Origin: a phage
Sequence record: PV730302.1
DNA length: 64,000 nucleotides
Reading direction: 5' to 3' (one strand)
Numbering within the stretch: position 1 is the first letter of the stretch; each line of letters opens with the position of its first letter. The position numbers and the translations under genes are program-made. A model generated the notes under the pieces. It made no database searches. It saw nothing but the letters and a program-made list of their open reading frames with translations, and was not told the origin of the DNA. Positions 16,663-62,188 of the stretch are shown here, piece by piece.

Positions 16663-18918
16663 TTAAAGCTTACATGCTGCACAATCGTCGGCTTTAGGAG
16701 TTTCGATTTCATAGTCATCAGTACCAGAGCCATCACGGGTATTATGGTAATAAAGGTTCTTACCACCGTAGTACCAGAAATACAACAGGTCATCAAGCAT
16801 TACTGACATCGGAACTTTTCCTTTTGGGAAAATCTGCGGGTCATAATATGTATTAGCTGATGCCGATTGACACACCCATTTCAACGCTATTGCCACTTGG
16901 GTAAGATAAGGTTTATTACCTTTCTTAGCAAGGGTCCAAGCGTAATCGTAGAGTCCTTGGTTATGTTCTACATTAGGAACTACCTGACGGAAGTTACCTT
17001 CTTTAGATTCTTTAATACTTACCGGACCGCGTGGAGGTTCGATACCGTTTGTAGAGTTGGAAACCTGGCTGCTTGATTCACACGGCATAAGTGCTGATAA
17101 TGTGCTATTACGGATGCCATGTTTAGCCAAGTCTTCCCGCAACGACGTCCAGTCACAAACATAGTTAGGGGCTGCGATTTGGTCAATCTTTTTATTGTAC
17201 CAGTCGATAGGTAATTCGCCTCGAGACCATTTAGTGTCTGAATAATACTCGCAAGGTCCTTTTTCTTCGGCCAACTTGATTGATGCTCGGATAAGTCCAT
17301 ATTGTAATCTCTCAAACAGTTCATGAGTTAAATCATTAGCGTCTTCATAAGAAGCAAAGTTGCTTGCCAACCAAGCGGCGTAGTTAGTAACACCAACACC
17401 CAGATTACGACGTTTCTTGGCCTTCAGAGCTTCAGGAACAGGATAATCTTGGTAGTCCAATAGGTTATCAAGTGCACGTACCTGGACTTCAGCGAGCTCG
17501 TTGATTTTGTCTTGGTCCTGCCAATCGAAGTTATCCAATACGAATGCAGACAACGTACACAAACCAATTTCAGCGTCCGGACTATTCACGTCAGTAGTAG
17601 GGATAGCAATTTCACAACACAAGTTGCTCTGTCGAATAGGAGCTTTTTCACGAATAAATGGTGTGAAGTTGTTAGTGTTATCAACGAACTGAGGATAAAT
17701 TCGTGCAGTGCCTGAGCGTTCGGTCATGAACAATTCGAAAAGGTCGCGTGCTTTAATACGTTTCTTACGAATACTAGGGTCTTTTTCTGCGGCTTCATAC
17801 AATTCACGGAAACGGTCTTGGTCTTCGAAATAAGAATAATAAAGCTCACCACCCATTTCGTGAGGACTAAACAACGTGATGTAATCATTTTTACCGAAAC
17901 GTTCCATCATAAGGTCGTTCATCTGGATTCCGTAGTCCATATGGCGAATACGGTTCTCATCGACACCTTTGTTGTTTTTCAGAACGAGCAGATTTTCAAC
18001 TTCCAAATGCCAAATAGGATAATAAGCAGTAGCAGCGCCGCCACGGATTCCACCTTGTGAACATGATTTAACAGCAGTCTGGAAATGTTTCCAGAATGGA
18101 ATAACGCCAGTATGTTTGACTTCACCCATGCCAATACGAGAACCTTCAGCACGAATCATACCAACGTTGATACCAATACCTGCACGTTTAGAAATGTATT
18201 CAATTATTGAGTTAGCAGTTTTGTTAATAGATTTCAGCGAGTCGCCTGCTTCAATAACCACACAAGAACTAAATTGACGAGTCGGTGTACGTGCTCCAGC
18301 CATAATAGGAGTTGGTAATGAAACCTGACGGGTACTTACAGCATCATAAAAACGAATAATATGTGCCAAACGATTACCTGGCTCTTCTTGGTGTAAGGCC
18401 ATGCCAATACACATGATAGCGAACTGAGGGGTTTCGTAGATTTTACCCGTGGTCTTATCTTTAACCAGATATTTCTCTTTCAGCTGCATCGCACCTGCAT
18501 AGGTCAATTCAAAGTCACGTTCATGCTTGATATGAGATTCTAAGAAAGTAATTTCTTCTGCAGAATATCGAGACAGCAATTCAGGGTCATATTTACCTTC
18601 GTTAACACAATAGGAAATATGGTCGATAAAGCTACGTGGTTCGAACTGGCCATAAACTTCTTTACGCAGTGCAAACATCAATTGCTTTGCAGCAACATAT
18701 TGGTAATCAGGTTCCTCAACCGAAATAAGGTTGGCTGCGACCTTAACAGTCAGATTCTGGATATCTTTGGTAGTCATACCATCACGAAGATGAGATTTGA
18801 TTTCTTCGTATAATTCATAGGGGTCGATTTGGGTTCCTTCACAGCCCCAAGTCAGAACTTTAATAATTTTTTGTGCGTCAAAATCTTGGGATACACCACT
18901 ACTTTTTTGTACTTGCAT
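16663..18918 (-). CDS. nrdA: Ribonucleotide reductase large subunit (class Ia)
   Basis: 751-aa ORF with ATP-cone N-terminus and conserved catalytic core (NLCCEI, C-terminal CAACKL-type tail). Confidence 0.95.
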   Translation of the reverse strand: MQVQKSSGVSQDFDAQKIIKVLTWGCEGTQIDPYELYEEIKSHLRDGMTTKDIQNLTVKVAANLISVEEPDYQYVAAKQLMFALRKEVYGQFEPRSFIDHISYCVNEGKYDPELLSRYSAEEITFLESHIKHERDFELTYAGAMQLKEKYLVKDKTTGKIYETPQFAIMCIGMALHQEEPGNRLAHIIRFYDAVSTRQVSLPTPIMAGARTPTRQFSSCVVIEAGDSLKSINKTANSIIEYISKRAGIGINVGMIRAEGSRIGMGEVKHTGVIPFWKHFQTAVKSCSQGGIRGGAATAYYPIWHLEVENLLVLKNNKGVDENRIRHMDYGIQMNDLMMERFGKNDYITLFSPHEMGGELYYSYFEDQDRFRELYEAAEKDPSIRKKRIKARDLFELFMTERSGTARIYPQFVDNTNNFTPFIREKAPIRQSNLCCEIAIPTTDVNSPDAEIGLCTLSAFVLDNFDWQDQDKINELAEVQVRALDNLLDYQDYPVPEALKAKKRRNLGVGVTNYAAWLASNFASYEDANDLTHELFERLQYGLIRASIKLAEEKGPCEYYSDTKWSRGELPIDWYNKKIDQIAAPNYVCDWTSLREDLAKHGIRNSTLSALMPCESSSQVSNSTNGIEPPRGPVSIKESKEGNFRQVVPNVEHNQGLYDYAWTLAKKGNKPYLTQVAIALKWVCQSASANTYYDPQIFPKGKVPMSVMLDDLLYFWYYGGKNLYYHNTRDGSGTDDYEIETPKADDCAACKL

Positions 18919-31254: not shown

Positions 31255-31902
31255 ATGGCTGATTTAAAATTAGGCTCAACCGCTGGAGGTTCCGTTATAT
31301 GGCACCAAGGCAATTTTCCGCTGACGCCGGTATCAAATGATATTTTATATAAGACCTACAAAATCTATACTGAATTTAATAAGCCTCAAGCCGCAGATAA
31401 CGACTTTGTTTCTAAAGCCGCCGGAGGCACATATAAAGGTACTGTTAATTTTGAAAAAGGTATAACTTTTAATGATTCCGCTGGGTATGCTATTAAATTG
31501 GGTGCCAGAGAAGGTGGACAACCTTTTACCGCTTCATTTAAGATTAAAGGGGCTTTTGGCCTTGAAACTGAAACAGGAACTCCGTTTGTAATCTTTAACC
31601 CTACCACTACAGTAGGAGCTAACCGACTTACTGTAATGGGCGATATCCTGGGTCGACATATTAAAGATGAATCTGGAAGAGTGTTTTCTCCAGGGAATGC
31701 TCCGACAAAAGCACAAGTTGGATTAAGCGATGTAGATAACGCAAAACAGGTCCAAATAAATAATAGTAACATACAATCTATGGCTGGTGTTCTTTCAGCC
31801 CCGAATTTCATATCTAGGAACCCAGGTACATTGAACGAACACGTTCCTCGTATCGACCAGGTTGTTCTTAGAGGTACATCTGAAGATTTTGGATATTATT
31901 AA
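31255..31902 (+). CDS. 36: Long tail fibre distal connector gp36
   Basis: 215 aa; size and position as T4 gp36. Confidence 0.75.
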
Positions 31903-36697: not shown

Positions 36698-37351
36698 ATG
36701 GAACCAAAAGTAGGATTTTCATTATCAGACCTACTTTTTGGACTTCTTGATAGAATTTTTAAAGATACTTCTTCCGGGAAAGTAGTTTTTTCCCGGGTCC
36801 TAGTCGTGATATTATTGTTCTTTATGGCACTGGTTTGGTATAAAGGCGAGTATATTCTAAACTTTTACAAAGAGACAACTTATGCCTCTTATACTGAAAT
36901 GATTAGACAAGACCAGGACAATAGATTTAAAATTGCGGCTATCGAGCAGCTCCGAATAGTGCATTCTTCTTCAGGCGCGGACTTCACAGCAATATATTCT
37001 TTTAGGCCGACAAACATGAATTATTTTGTGGATATGGTGGCCTACGAGGGTAAATTACCGGAAACGGTAGACGCAAAAAATACGGGAGGGTTTCCAATTG
37101 ACAAAACGTCAGTAGAATATATGGCTGGAGTTAACGGGAACTATTTTGAATCAAGTACTGAATCAGTGTTTCTCCCTACAAAGAAGAAAACACAATTCAC
37201 GTATATGTTTTCATGCCCGTTTTTTAATTTGGATAACGTCTACGCCGGCTCGATATCGTTGTACTGGTATGATATCAAACCGGATTTAGGATTTCCTAGA
37301 CTTTCGTCTATGTGTGGTCAAGCCGGGAGGACATTAGGTCGAACACGTTAG
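36698..37351 (+). CDS. t: Holin t
   Basis: 217 aa; single N-terminal TM segment (VLVVILLFFMALVWY) and large periplasmic domain; sequence resembles remembered T4 T holin. Confidence 0.9.
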   Translation: MEPKVGFSLSDLLFGLLDRIFKDTSSGKVVFSRVLVVILLFFMALVWYKGEYILNFYKETTYASYTEMIRQDQDNRFKIAAIEQLRIVHSSSGADFTAIYSFRPTNMNYFVDMVAYEGKLPETVDAKNTGGFPIDKTSVEYMAGVNGNYFESSTESVFLPTKKKTQFTYMFSCPFFNLDNVYAGSISLYWYDIKPDLGFPRLSSMCGQAGRTLGRTR

Positions 37352-48514: not shown

Positions 48515-48694
48515 TTATTCAATTTTGTAGACTTGTCCTCGAACTTGATAAAATTCGCCTTCCCAGGTTTCTACCATAATGGTCACGTACTCTGCGAACA
48601 AAGGTCTCTTCTCAGCCCAGAGATATCCAAATTCACCGGTGGCTAGCGTTATCCAGTACTTTCTCATAAAGTCTCCTAATTGTATGGCACTCAT
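48515..48694 (-). CDS. Hypothetical small protein
   Basis: ORF track 48515..48802 overlaps the gene 39 3' end; start moved to internal ATG at 48694. Confidence 0.3.
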   Translation of the reverse strand: MSAIQLGDFMRKYWITLATGEFGYLWAEKRPLFAEYVTIMVETWEGEFYQVRGQVYKIE

Positions 48695-48710
48695 GTACCA
48701 TACATATTTA

Positions 48711-50528
48711 TTACGACATCCAGGCCTTACGGAGTTGAGGGTCGTTTCCGAGGAGCATTTCGAACTGTTCTTTCCAATCTTCAGGCAATTGAACCACATC
48801 AAATTTAGGGTCTTGAATCATTCGACGATATTCAGCTTTCTCAAGAGAACCTAGTCCTTTGATATAACGAATAGAATGTTTTGGTAGAGAGTCCTTAGCT
48901 TTGGTATAACTAGGAACATCATAGAACCATTCTTGTTCTTTACCAACCTGGGCAATAATCACCGGAGTTTTACAGAATCGTACTCGACCCTGTTCGAACA
49001 ATTCAGGCCATTGACTAAAGAAGGCCAGCAATGATGGGTAAATCGAACCAGTACCATCCACATCAGCATCAGTCATGATAGCGATATTACGATAGTTAGT
49101 TTTCTCTGCAGGTTCGCCAATAACCAGTCCAGTGATTGCACAGATATCAAATAGTTCCTTGTTCTTCATGATATCTGTTGCCGACATTCCCCAGGTATTC
49201 ATAACCTTACCACGTAATGGATAACCACCTTGAAGGTCTTTATTACGGACTTCAATGAAAGGACCCATAGCGGAATCACCTTCGGTTAGGAACAAGGTTG
49301 TATCGGCGTCTTTGCCGTATAGGTTAGCTTTAATATGCTTATGGACCTTGGCTTTAGAAGCTTTCTTAGCGGCTTTAGTTTCGGCGGCTTTTTCAGCTGC
49401 TAATTTACGTGCTAAAGCCGCTTCAACGATAGGCATAATCAACCCTTCGTCTTTAAGAATATACTGTGAGATTTTCTTTGCATCAATTTGAATATGGTTA
49501 CGAATTTCACCGAATGGTGACGTCAAACGTTCTTTAGTCTGGGAATCAAAACGCATATTACTCATATCGCGAATGAACATCACCATCGTAAGGCATTCTT
49601 TAACTCGTGCCTTACTTACTTCAATGCCTTTATATTTCTTCTTGATGCCTGGCAAGAGATGTTCGCAGATATCATCAAACACACATTCAACATGATGACC
49701 ACCATTCTTAGTATGAATATTGTTCACATAAGTTAGGTGGCGGAATCCATCCGGAGATGTAGTAAATGCCATTGAGACATTATCGGTTTCTTGAATTACT
49801 ACATCTTTACCAAATTGATTAGCATACTTTTTAAAGTTACCATCTACTTTTTTACCATTAAAAGTAAATTGGATACTAGGATAAATTACAGCTAGAGTTT
49901 TAAGACGATCTAGAGTAATATCCAGATAAATTTGTGATAGAGAGTTCTCTTCAAAATGATTAAAGTCTGGAGTGAATATAACCGAAGTACCCTTACCTTT
50001 AGATTTCTTAGTAGACCAACCTTTGTTTTCCATTCCATTGGAACAGTTAACTGTAATTTCATTCTCGCCATCAGAGGTGATGCCTGTGAACAAAACGGAG
50101 AAGATATTAGTTAAACTACTACCGACACCATTCATGCCGCCTGTCTTACGCTCAGCGTCATCTCCAAAGTTACCACCCGCCTTTGGAATAGTCCATGCTG
50201 CTACAGGACCTGGAATCTGTTCACCATTTTGGTCGGTGACCATTGCTTGTGGAATACCACGACCATTATCAGAAACTGAAACCTGGTTATTCTTAATTTG
50301 AACATCAATTTTATTTGCGAATTTAAAATTGGTACGAATAGCTTCATCGACAGAGTTATCAATGATTTCGTCAATTAATTTAACCAGTCCAGGAACATAG
50401 TTTACCTGTGTAAAATTACCAAACAGGAATCGACCGTGAGCTTCATTAGCACTGGAGCCAATATACATCCCACTACGTTTTTTGATATGTTCAATGTCGG
50501 ACAGTACTTTAATTTCATTCTTAATCAT
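48711..50528 (-). CDS. 39: DNA topoisomerase II large subunit (GyrB-like ATPase), unsplit 39+60 equivalent
   Basis: 605-aa continuous ORF with GHKL ATPase N-terminus (IDNSVDEA, DNGRGIP) and TOPRIM C-terminus. Confidence 0.9.
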   Translation of the reverse strand: MIKNEIKVLSDIEHIKKRSGMYIGSSANEAHGRFLFGNFTQVNYVPGLVKLIDEIIDNSVDEAIRTNFKFANKIDVQIKNNQVSVSDNGRGIPQAMVTDQNGEQIPGPVAAWTIPKAGGNFGDDAERKTGGMNGVGSSLTNIFSVLFTGITSDGENEITVNCSNGMENKGWSTKKSKGKGTSVIFTPDFNHFEENSLSQIYLDITLDRLKTLAVIYPSIQFTFNGKKVDGNFKKYANQFGKDVVIQETDNVSMAFTTSPDGFRHLTYVNNIHTKNGGHHVECVFDDICEHLLPGIKKKYKGIEVSKARVKECLTMVMFIRDMSNMRFDSQTKERLTSPFGEIRNHIQIDAKKISQYILKDEGLIMPIVEAALARKLAAEKAAETKAAKKASKAKVHKHIKANLYGKDADTTLFLTEGDSAMGPFIEVRNKDLQGGYPLRGKVMNTWGMSATDIMKNKELFDICAITGLVIGEPAEKTNYRNIAIMTDADVDGTGSIYPSLLAFFSQWPELFEQGRVRFCKTPVIIAQVGKEQEWFYDVPSYTKAKDSLPKHSIRYIKGLGSLEKAEYRRMIQDPKFDVVQLPEDWKEQFEMLLGNDPQLRKAWMS

Positions 50529-59664: not shown

Positions 59665-59898
59665 TTAAACTACTGGGGTAGGCGTAAACATCGCCGCGTT
59701 CTTAGTTCGCCAATCGGCTGCATCAGTTACTACAGTAGTGTATGCCGCCTTTTCAGAAGGAAATGTCTGATAGTGTGCATTCGCAATACGATGCTCGTTT
59801 GAATAGATTTCAAACGGGACAGATACTTCAACACCTTTAACTTCTTTACCTTCACCAGCCGGATGTGTAAAGGTTTTAATATTAACGAAACCACCCAT
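59665..59898 (-). CDS. soc: Small outer capsid protein Soc
   Basis: 77 aa; ..VNIKTF......GKE..G.E.SV.F..YS..H.I..AHYQTFPSEKAAY.TV matches remembered T4 Soc. Confidence 0.8.
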   Translation of the reverse strand: MGGFVNIKTFTHPAGEGKEVKGVEVSVPFEIYSNEHRIANAHYQTFPSEKAAYTTVVTDAADWRTKNAAMFTPTPVV

Positions 59899-59941: not shown

Positions 59942-60463
59942 TTAATACCCTCGGTCCTGGCGAGCAAAGTTCTCGGCATTTTTCAGGTAATACAGTTTAA
60001 AGATTTCTTCAGCAGTCAGTCCAAGACCTTGGAACATATTCAGAACAAAGTGCAGAATATCAATCATTTCGAATTTAATTTCGAGCTGGTCTTCAGGAGA
60101 CAAATCGTTAATCAGGGTTTCACGACGTTCAGCATGTTGAGCTTTCCAAGGCTTCCATACAGCGCTCGCATCTTTTTCGCCATTGCTCATGCCACCAAGA
60201 GAAGTCAGAAGTTCGCGGAATTCATCATCAATATAATCTTTCTGATTGCGCAACCAATCAACAACTTCACCTGCAGTAGCCAAGTCATCAGGATGACGGT
60301 TATATTCAGGTTTATCTTTAGCCAAACGGACCTGTAATGATTTCTGCATATCAAGCATAACCTGCAGAGGGTCTTTATCTTCGTGAATCAGAGCATTAAA
60401 ATAAGCTTCCTCAGCTTTATCAACACCAGCAATAAGTTGTGAGCATTCGTTAAAGTGTGCCAT
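59942..60463 (-). CDS. 56: dCTP pyrophosphatase gp56 (MazG-like)
   Basis: MAHFNEC..LI.GVDKA...Y...........DPLQVMLDMQ and C-terminal EIFKLYYLKNAENFARQDRGY match remembered T4 gp56. Confidence 0.85.
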   Translation of the reverse strand: MAHFNECSQLIAGVDKAEEAYFNALIHEDKDPLQVMLDMQKSLQVRLAKDKPEYNRHPDDLATAGEVVDWLRNQKDYIDDEFRELLTSLGGMSNGEKDASAVWKPWKAQHAERRETLINDLSPEDQLEIKFEMIDILHFVLNMFQGLGLTAEEIFKLYYLKNAENFARQDRGY

Positions 60464-60554
60464 TATATTTTTTCCTTTTCAATTCATTAGTAAGTTAGAT
60501 AATTATAAACTGTTAGATTAAAGCGAATAAATATTAATTTAACAGGAGGATAAC

Positions 60555-60755
60555 ATGGGCAGTATTTTTTACCAAATCTGGAAATTGGCCGAAAAGAAAG
60601 ACAGGAAAATGATGTTAGGTTTTCTTGCGCTAGACGTATTCCTTTGGAATCTTCTAGTAGTCCCTGTAGCCGCTAGCCAAGGGATAATTTTACCAGCGGT
60701 TACAATGGAACACGTATTAAGCATAATTGGATTCTTTAGCGGAGTTCCTGCCTAA
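60555..60755 (+). CDS. Orphan small two-TM membrane protein (66 aa), opposite strand to neighbours
   Basis: Consensus SD AGGAGG 6 nt before the ATG; two hydrophobic segments; lies in the otherwise non-coding 56-61 interval. May not be expressed. Confidence 0.3.
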   Translation: MGSIFYQIWKLAEKKDRKMMLGFLALDVFLWNLLVVPVAASQGIILPAVTMEHVLSIIGFFSGVPA

Positions 60756-61780
60756 ATTTTAGAATATTTTGAAAGTCTCATTTTTGCCATTAAACCTTGG
60801 GCTATATTAGCTTTCATATATGCCAGTACATCATTTATATCAGCTTTATCTTTCATAATCATATCATTTATATCTTTAGAAGGCCATGGAGCCTTGTCCC
60901 AGAATAGAACCCTTTCGCCAGCATCAACTAATCGTTGCATACGCTTAATTGTGTCAGGATGGCGGGGTTCATTGTCCATTACCCAGGCACGTGTTTCTTT
61001 ACAAGGAACCATAGCCAAGTCCAATGACCCACCAGTAATTGCTATTGCATTCGGTACGAATAATGAATCGATAGGACCTTCCATTACCCACACCAACTGA
61101 CGTTCGTCAACTGTATCCATTCCATATATTTTTGTAGCTTGGTCGTGAGCTTTTATTGTAATATATTTTTGTGGAGCATCTTTACGTAAGGCCCGACCCT
61201 GAAAACTTTCAATTTGTTTATTCTTATTGAAAATTGGAATAACCAAACGAGGCTCAGGCATTTCTTTAGAATAGGTTCCTGGATTCACAGAGTTAACTAA
61301 TGCAGGCCATTCTTTAGTAAACCATAGCCGATTCCATTTGTTTTCAGGAATGCAACGTAACGTCACATATTTTATAATAGGATGGTCCTTCGGCATTCTA
61401 TCTAATCGTTCACAGAAATTAAGCTTTTCGATGACAGGCATCTTAGCTTTAATTTTTTCAGATATCTCCACCTTAGGTGCAGCTTGTCTCCCGAACGATT
61501 GCTCTTTATGTTTCTCAAGAATATATTCACGATATAAATCAGGCTCGTATTCGTATAGATACTTCTTAATTCCTGCTGAATAGTCACAGTTAAAACAGTG
61601 CAGCATTACGGAGCCGTCAGTAGCCGGATAGGCCCAAAAACGAGCTTTGTTCTCATCTTTTTGGGAGTCACCGCATACACGACAACGGCAATTTAATTTA
61701 AAATCACTACCAGTTACTTGTCTGAATTTAGGTTGGTAATTCAAGGCACGTACAGCAAATTCTCTATCGACATATGACAT
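60752..61780 (-). CDS. 61: DNA primase gp61
   Basis: 342 aa; N-terminal zinc ribbon (CRCRVCGDS...HCFNC) plus TOPRIM-like core; position as in T4. Confidence 0.85.
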   Translation of the reverse strand: MSYVDREFAVRALNYQPKFRQVTGSDFKLNCRCRVCGDSQKDENKARFWAYPATDGSVMLHCFNCDYSAGIKKYLYEYEPDLYREYILEKHKEQSFGRQAAPKVEISEKIKAKMPVIEKLNFCERLDRMPKDHPIIKYVTLRCIPENKWNRLWFTKEWPALVNSVNPGTYSKEMPEPRLVIPIFNKNKQIESFQGRALRKDAPQKYITIKAHDQATKIYGMDTVDERQLVWVMEGPIDSLFVPNAIAITGGSLDLAMVPCKETRAWVMDNEPRHPDTIKRMQRLVDAGERVLFWDKAPWPSKDINDMIMKDKADINDVLAYMKANIAQGLMAKMRLSKYSKI

Positions 61781-61818: not shown

Positions 61819-61980
61819 TCATTCGTTTTCGGATTTTTCTTTACGCTTTTTAGATGGGATTTGTTCAGGCCCTTTGTTGACGACTGCGCCTGAGGTAGTT
61901 CCGGAAGCAATAGCAGTAGGATTACCACCTGCATCGCCTGCGACCATATCTTCGTTCATAACTTCTTTAAAAGATTTCAT
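61819..61980 (-). CDS. Hypothetical small hydrophilic protein (53 aa)
   Basis: Hand-translated ORF (MKSFKEVMNEDMVAGDAGGNPTAIASG...KKRKEKSENE) with AGGAGCC SD; below the track threshold. Confidence 0.3.
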   Translation of the reverse strand: MKSFKEVMNEDMVAGDAGGNPTAIASGTTSGAVVNKGPEQIPSKKRKEKSENE

Positions 61981-61996
61981 AGGCTCCTGGCCTTAT

Positions 61997-62188
61997 TTAT
62001 ATTACGAAAATAGCTTTATCACCATTTGCATCAGTGACTTCATAGGTATCTTCGTGGTACAGTGGAATAATCCAAGTTACGCCATCACCAGCAATAATAT
62101 GGATAGCTTCTTGGTCTTTTGATACGATTTCATATTCTTCGAATAACTCGAATACAGAAATCTTAGAGCCCGTACACATTGCAGTCAT
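61997..62188 (-). CDS. Hypothetical protein (63 aa)
   Basis: ORF track. Confidence 0.35.
   Translation of the reverse strand: MTAMCTGSKISVFELFEEYEIVSKDQEAIHIIAGDGVTWIIPLYHEDTYEVTDANGDKAIFVI

Follow-up and report, generated by a model that had tools for sequence, protein, structure and literature searches.

Does the short interval between gene 56 (dCTPase) and gene 61 (DNA primase) of a T4-type phage hold a protein-coding gene, a replication origin or other regulatory region, or both? The question was raised by a first-pass annotation of a 64,000-nucleotide stretch of phage DNA (sequence record PV730302.1, referred to here as the window), which described about 290 bp without any minus-strand gene and, on the opposite strand, an "orphan" 66-aa ORF preceded by a Shine-Dalgarno sequence. 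The region shares 99.4% identity with Escherichia phage QL01, which belongs to the T4-type genus Dhakavirus. Taking the evidence below together, we consider it highly probable that a coding gene for a membrane protein, for which we infer late expression, topology and mode of action, shares this interval with the middle promoter of gene 56.

A conserved coding gene between genes 56 and 61

The gap between genes 56 and 61 measures 288 bp, close to the earlier estimate, and indeed contains no minus-strand gene. The sole minus-strand ORF there (51 aa, 60569-60724, frame -2) was rejected as a gene, because stop codons interrupt it in relatives and its low pN/pS is no more than the shadow that the plus-strand frame is expected to cast. 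As read from the window sequence, the plus strand contains an ATG-started ORF of 66 aa (Table 1; coordinates include the stop codon), separated from an upstream AGGAGG by the spacer ATAAC. Both the ORF and its Shine-Dalgarno sequence are thus present as first described, except that the spacer had been given as 6 nt and is one nucleotide shorter. A Shine-Dalgarno sequence of the GGAG type (AGGAGG, AGGAG, or GGAGG) with a spacer of 3-6 nt was found in all 20 lineages checked. At its other end, the ORF converges with gene 61, and the two stop codons overlap by 4 nt. The 5' part of the interval is as AT-rich as had been noted, with a GC content of 0.21 across 60455-60544 vs. 0.32-0.49 for the neighboring genes.

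Table 1. Coordinates of the features at the 56-61 locus in the window, and of paralogue loci and insertions in other sequences
Feature	Sequence	Coordinates	Strand	Remarks
Gene 56 (dCTPase), left neighbor	window	59942..60463	−	PHROG profile
Gene 56 leader	window	60464..60501	−	With Shine-Dalgarno AAGGAAAA (60470-60477); by-eye alignment with T4 upstream of 56
-10 element TATAAT, gene 56 middle promoter	window	60502..60507	−	11 nt downstream of MotA box
MotA-box-like ATTCGCTTTA	window	60519..60528	−	One mismatch to consensus; predicted middle promoter of gene 56
Predicted T4-type late promoter (gp55-dependent) AATAAATA	window	60526..60533	+	A(-13) variant; 21 nt 5' of ATG
Shine-Dalgarno AGGAGG	window	60544..60549	+	5 nt 5' of ATG
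Small-ORF CDS	window	60555..60755	+	"b" subfamily of PHROG 2024 / T4 Dam.1 family; predicted small inner-membrane protein
Gene 61 (DNA primase), right neighbor	window	60752..61780	−	PHROG profile; convergent
Gaprivervirus paralogue locus	L005	2495-2901
Gaprivervirus paralogue locus	L023	1011-1317
Gaprivervirus paralogue locus	L016	1295-1699
Insertion in the 56-61 interval	L002	2068-2724
Insertion in the 56-61 interval	L024	1408-2163
Insertions in the 56-61 interval	L004	1107-1781, 2347-3126
Insertion in the 56-61 interval	L022	160-810

The pattern of substitution among related phages is that of a protein-coding sequence. By the Nei-Gojobori method, pN and pS are 0.098 and 0.81 between the window and Bp7, and 0.136 and 0.785 between the window and Marfa, while dN/dS is 0.07 for Kosakonia phage 305 vs. 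PEi20 and 0.07-0.20 for close Dhakavirus pairs. In the window-type set, the first, second, and third codon positions are variable in 42, 25, and 62 of the 65 codons, respectively. Only frame +1 of the six possible frames lacks stops in all genomes, and it also has the lowest pN/pS; the second-lowest value belongs, as expected, to the antisense frame that shares its third positions, which contains stops. Since synonymous sites are saturated and the amino acids are kept, the ORF is maintained as a protein and not as a DNA element, and 60555-60755 (+) is a genuine protein-coding gene. The dN/dS comparison that the first-pass annotation had suggested thus found purifying selection in frame +1 only, in a frame that is open in all lineages.

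The Bp7 allele (L024 1201-1401) differs from the window allele at nearly all synonymous sites, both phages being members of Dhakavirus. Other Dhakavirus pairs have a pS of only 0.1-0.24, and this difference suggests that, in the case of Bp7, the small-ORF module may have been exchanged between lineages.

The ORF is not an orphan, as had been claimed. Its residues 1-64 match positions 1-64 of the 65 in the PHROG 2024 profile (E 4.1e-28), it has a T4 homologue (dam.1, discussed below), and QL01, VR5, dhaeg, Bp7, and many other genomes already list it as a hypothetical protein; the records of JS98, JS10, and IME08 leave it without annotation. In Dhakavirus, the same gene occupies the same position, with no difference of substance, in QL01 (gp028, 98.5% identity to the window protein), VR5 (gp029, 93.9%), and Bp7 (gp109, 87.5%). 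Searches by tblastn found window-type homologues (close and intermediate) in 122 phage records and T4-type homologues in 698 records, both types together being present in about 800 T4-type phage records. The two subfamilies are homologous to each other (hhalign probability 97.2%, E 4.5e-11).

The genomic context of the family is similarly well conserved. In every T4-type locus inspected, the ORF lies on the plus strand and adjoins the primase gene, and the arrangement 56 - ORF(+) - 61 was found in uncultured contigs and in about ten named T4-type genera (Dhakavirus, Tequatrovirus, Mosigvirus, Gaprivervirus, Marfavirus, Jiaodavirus, Kanagawavirus, Gelderlandvirus, and Mosugukvirus among them). 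When 1.84 billion representative proteins were searched exhaustively with a profile, only 13 clusters were returned; those with readable context are T4-type loci in the order 56 - ORF - 61, except for two in uncultured non-T4-like phages. A scan of IMG/VR gave only 11 loci, mostly from phages already known. The small ORF therefore represents a family that is found almost only in T4-type phages, with two occurrences outside them, and the gene is conserved across the enterobacterial T4-type phages.

The T4 member of the family is a 66-aa ORF at 17738-17938, inside the 309 bp that separate dam from gene 61. It is absent from both the T4 RefSeq and GenBank annotations, and is named dam.1 in the T4T record (T4Tp032, HM137666). 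Like the window gene, dam.1 encodes 66 aa on the same strand relative to its neighbors, converges on gene 61 with a 4-nt overlap at the stop codon of the latter, and is preceded by a ATAAATATTAATTTAA-AGGAGGATA block; its product also shares the W-N-x4-P-x-A-x3-G-x3-P core, although the two proteins are only about 22-26% identical. T4 Dam.1 represents the "a" paralogue and the window protein the "b" paralogue, and phage VR26 has both. A further difference is that T4 carries the dam gene between dam.1 and gene 56, which the window does not have there. Literature searches found no paper on dam.1, the T4 Ribo-seq and small-ORF literature likewise held nothing relevant, and the GenBank T4 records contain no promoter features at the dam.1 region.

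In the Gaprivervirus phages VR26 and VR25, the two subfamilies occur in tandem, the T4 type followed by the window type at a distance of 8 nt (Table 1). The second ("b") copy has lost about its first 30 codons in SP18-like phages and is frameshifted in VR20, with the first copy intact in each case, so at least one of the paralogues is dispensable when the other is present. Disruption of the ORF in close relatives, which the first-pass annotation had named as evidence against a gene, was thus found only where a paralogue remains, and the gene stands. The deletion junction in the SP18-like phages lies at TGGAAC, a sequence that is present both in the spacer (GGTGGAAC) and at codons W31-N32, which suggests a microhomology deletion.

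The 56-61 interval is also an insertion hot spot, and the small plus-strand gene is intact in all cases. VR5 and IME08 have mobE inserted here, T4 has segF and dam, Kosakonia phage 305 carries a further endonuclease gene, and in Bp7 a homing-endonuclease gene separates the ORF from gene 61 (Table 1). Other small genes have also entered on one or the other side of the ORF in some loci, with no change to its strand or to its position at the primase gene.

Besides the T4-type loci, two distant homologues (P0072 and P0074) are encoded by uncultured non-T4-like phages, downstream of tail genes and an endonuclease VII gene; a tblastn search with both found no close copies in cultured phages. The two loci (L027 2260-3749 and L031 2772-3842) have a common order of a 94-aa protein with a transmembrane helix and a coiled coil, endonuclease VII, and the PHROG 2024 member. 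This block runs co-directionally with large tail genes, with a weak minor-tail match among the neighbors, and a serine recombinase is also present in L027, as are a T4_Cef domain and a lysozyme in L031. A lysis cassette was looked for near P0072 and P0074, and none was found. The location of these two genes on the structural-gene strand would fit late expression; it gives no mechanism.

Late and middle promoter motifs upstream of the small gene

The ORF is oriented against all of its neighbors, and we attribute this to a late-promoter motif conserved just upstream of its ATG. The AATAAATA sequence at 60526-60533 matches the canonical T4 late promoter TATAAATA, an element that occupies -13 to -6, at 7 of 8 positions. 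In an alignment of the upstream sequences of 20 lineages anchored at the ATG, ATAAATA is present 13-21 nt before the start codon in 19 lineages, and it keeps this place in relatives with divergent flanking sequence. Five of them (Bp7, Marfa, an uncultured relative of Marfa, Q7622, and Kosakonia 305) have the canonical TATAAATA, and the remaining ones have A, G, or C before ATAAATA, T4 itself having GATAAATA. For comparison, ATAAATA occurs six times on the plus strand and nine times on the minus strand of the 64-kb window. Among the 50 T4 late promoters that have been listed, 32 are perfect and nine have an A at -13, which makes the latter the commonest variant; T4 late transcripts are of either polarity (PMC2988020, Geiduschek and Kassavetis).

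The other late motifs of the window show a consistent arrangement. Most of the full TATAAATA copies that were checked lie just 5' of an ORF start (a gp36-like gene at 31255, holin t at 36698, soc at 59898, and 61.1 at 61980), and holin t and soc have the same layout as the small gene, i.e., motif, short leader, Shine-Dalgarno, and ATG. The tail-fibre genes and holin t are encoded with a late motif on the plus strand, which is thus the late-gene strand. Transcription of the ORF against the neighboring early and middle genes, as originally suggested, is therefore also what the conserved motif and the strand predict. The small gene is probably switched on late in infection, through a gp55-dependent transcript that would start near 60539. 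A sigma-70 promoter scan found nothing above chance. As no terminator was predicted after the ORF, and folding of the RNA 3' of the stop codon revealed no structure (z-score 0.72), such a transcript would continue antisense into gene 61.

Two further motifs of this kind were seen on the minus strand. A canonical TATAAATA at 61994-62001 (−) precedes the start codon of the gene 61.1 homologue (61819-61980, −) by 13 nt, and this gene of the early region may also be transcribed late. Similarly, a AATAAATA variant at 48705-48712 (−), located 10 nt 5' of the ATG of a 59-aa ORF (48515-48694, −), may be another late-promoter variant in the early region.

The opposite strand of the same AT-rich stretch contains the predicted middle promoter of gene 56 (Table 1). 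Middle promoters have the consensus of a MotA box, (a/t)(a/t)(a/t)TGCTTtA, at 12+/-1 bp from TAtaaT (PMC2988021), and the window encodes both MotA (Pfam MotA_activ, E 2e-38) and AsiA (E 6e-22). The layout of a MotA box, 11 nt, and TATAAT was found in the 8 lineages in which a gene directly abuts the promoter, this gene being gene 56 in seven lineages and mobE followed by gene 56 in VR5. In the window, 3 bp are shared between the MotA box (−) and the late motif (+).

The T4 record X01416 (Macdonald and Mosig) has a mot box and a -10 element at this place, P(M)16.53. The annotation of T4 puts oriA 22 nt into gene 56 and gives the transcript of this gene as the primer; the equivalent position in the window would be about 60441. 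Evidence for a MotA-dependent primer at oriA has been reviewed (PMC3016281, Kreuzer and Brister review). Judged by sequence and position, 60502-60528 (−) is homologous to the T4 promoter from which the proposed oriA primer is transcribed. The T4 oriA region resembles the window in that a leader and a MotA-type promoter lie directly upstream of gene 56. In T4, however, the oriA promoter lies inside the 3' end of dam, whereas in the window it abuts the late promoter of the small gene; T4 lacks the back-to-back arrangement of late and middle promoter, because dam intervenes. A search of 60300-60900 against Rfam gave nothing at E <= 1. The earlier idea that the interval is an origin or regulatory region thus holds for its location, i.e., an oriA-promoter homologue at roughly 60440-60530, and fails for the body of the ORF, where synonymous sites are saturated.

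Predicted topology and candidate roles of the protein

The two hydrophobic segments that had been noticed in the translation are both recovered on the Kyte-Doolittle scale, with 19-mer means of 2.05 for residues 20-38 and 1.72 for residues 43-61. The second stretch carries E52/H53 and is much less favorable on the Hessa scale. All five Lys/Arg residues are located at positions 10-18, before the main hydrophobic helix, which argues for a cytoplasmic N-terminus, and the C-terminus is hydrophobic. Hydropathy and charge distribution together predict a small membrane protein, in agreement with the first-pass annotation. An AlphaFold2 model built from a 14-sequence alignment has helices at residues 2-11, 14-41, and 51-62 with a mean pLDDT of 74.6, and its overall confidence is only moderate (pTM 0.47).

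Five residues (W31, N32, P37, G43, and P47) show no variation across both subfamilies and the distant members. The same holds, or nearly so, for A39, and many members have an acidic residue near position 52. The window protein shows the pattern of the family, consisting of a basic N-terminus, a hydrophobic helix with W-N, and then P-x-A-x3-G-x3-P. The second stretch of the Kanagawavirus type includes E, H, and R, and a second membrane span is therefore unlikely. An intramembrane D27-H53 pair, considered as support for a hairpin, was rejected, since the Kanagawavirus type has E-H without the Asp, plus an Arg there. The topology predictions favor a single main transmembrane helix (~19-41), and in the model that we prefer the protein crosses the inner membrane once and ends in a short tail, either periplasmic or interfacial. 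As the second stretch passes the Kyte-Doolittle threshold, a two-pass hairpin is possible.

Homology searches placed the protein in no family of described function: there was no match in Pfam, NCBIfam, or PADLOC, nor in a sequence profile search of the PDB, and Foldseek against BFVD and the PDB returned only members of its own family or noise. We propose that RNA polymerase carrying gp55 would recognize the late promoter and produce an mRNA from near 60539, which would be translated from the AGGAGG site and would run on antisense into gene 61. On the other strand, 60464-60530 would provide gene 56 with its leader and with a MotA-dependent middle promoter that points away from the late promoter. 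The 66-aa product would reside in the inner membrane, with an amphipathic N-terminal helix, a cytoplasmic cluster of five Lys/Arg, one transmembrane helix (~residues 19-41), and a short hydrophobic C-terminal helix in the periplasm or at the membrane surface; the five invariant residues would lie in and just after the transmembrane helix. The polar N32, if buried in the membrane, suggests helix-helix association, and the protein may act through this Asn by associating with itself or with a late envelope protein. Lysis timing, lysis inhibition, and other envelope functions are the candidate roles; we name lysis timing or an envelope role as the most likely area with low confidence.

Other explanations of the locus dispense with the protein or make it secondary. 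One is that the interval is a non-coding origin or regulatory region, in which the ORF is a chance frame kept by conservation of the DNA. Its AT-rich 5' part, the annotation of T4 oriA beside the homologous promoter, and the lack of an annotated ORF in the T4 RefSeq and JS98 records would all agree with this, but the conservation of the protein over saturated synonymous sites refutes it for the ORF body, which is moreover open in all lineages and genera, encodes an HMM family with invariant residues, and has a strong and conserved Shine-Dalgarno sequence, with neither an Rfam match nor an excess of RNA structure. We give this explanation almost no credence for the interval as a whole; it is valid only for 60464-60540. 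Alternatively, the functional product could be an antisense RNA, made late and extending into gene 61, that would end primase synthesis late in infection, the peptide being secondary, as the two genes converge with overlapping stops and neither a terminator nor a stable hairpin follows the ORF. Selection at the protein level, however, indicates that the peptide itself is under constraint, and the ORF is intact in Bp7, where a homing-endonuclease gene and a hairpin recognized by eye separate it from gene 61; in CGG4-1, JD18, and contig L028, the ORF and gene 61 do not overlap at all. That the antisense RNA is the main product appears very improbable to us, and an antisense effect could coexist with a function of the protein.

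The remaining alternatives accept the membrane protein and differ in its role. The UniRef name of the OE5505 homologue would make it a lysis protein of the holin or pinholin kind. Small phage holins (class II or pinholin) and the T4 holin T are small late membrane proteins, as is predicted for the window protein, and have one or two hydrophobic helices, the size is similar to that of class II holins, and "Holin" labels exist in databases. Holins typically have a charged hydrophilic C-terminal tail, however, and the window protein lacks one (it ends in ...GFFSGVPA). It also differs from holins in having no lysis-cassette context and no match to a Pfam holin family: no endolysin or spanin gene adjoins it in any locus seen, its neighbors in T4-type phages being the dCTPase and primase genes. 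Further, a T holin is already encoded by the phage at 36698-37351 (+) (Pfam Phage_holin_T, E 4e-66), and "Holin" is one of several contradictory automatic labels, so a holin role is unlikely. An accessory envelope factor, active in superinfection exclusion or in protection against host defense and not part of the lysis machinery, would be in line with the other small envelope proteins encoded nearby in T4-type phages (e.g., spackle, ~2 kb away), with the position of P0072 and P0074 downstream of tail genes, where accessory genes often sit, and with the gain and loss of paralogues. But the T4 exclusion proteins Imm and Sp are early, whereas the small gene has a predicted late promoter; neither PADLOC nor any other family matched; and its near-universal presence in enterobacterial T4-type phages is more core-like than accessory. 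We regard such a role as conceivable and rather doubtful, and retain the late membrane protein with a possible part in lysis timing or another envelope function as the preferred reading.

Annotation and meaning for T4-type phages

The same protein carries contradictory labels in databases, including dCTP pyrophosphatase, DNA packaging ATPase, thymidylate synthase, and Holin. The mislabelled records are found among dhaeg, CGG4-1, IME341, the Klebsiella phages EI, MY02, and SAKp28, SHP1, 04086, and OE5505, and the names look like propagated mislabels. Recognition of the family closes an annotation gap, as the gene is missing from the T4 RefSeq and JS98-type records; since the T4 RefSeq lacks dam.1, screens based on the T4 reference annotation skip this gene.

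The finding is ordinary in kind and would not surprise a T4 specialist. The interest that is left lies in the function of the protein, in the paralogue pair, and in the overlapping promoters beside the oriA-equivalent site. A conserved membrane protein that is predicted to be late is a cheap knockout target, and the paralogue pair suits tests of redundancy. The back-to-back middle and late promoters at the oriA-equivalent site would bring two transcription programs together in one AT-rich stretch. More speculatively, and with a small probability in our estimate, the Dam.1 family may be an unrecognized late membrane component, e.g., a factor in lysis timing or inhibition that docks onto holin T, the spanins, or a host envelope protein via its intramembrane Asn, or the overlapping middle and late promoters may permit late firing of the oriA region in the recombination-linked mode that has been reported for oriA of T4.
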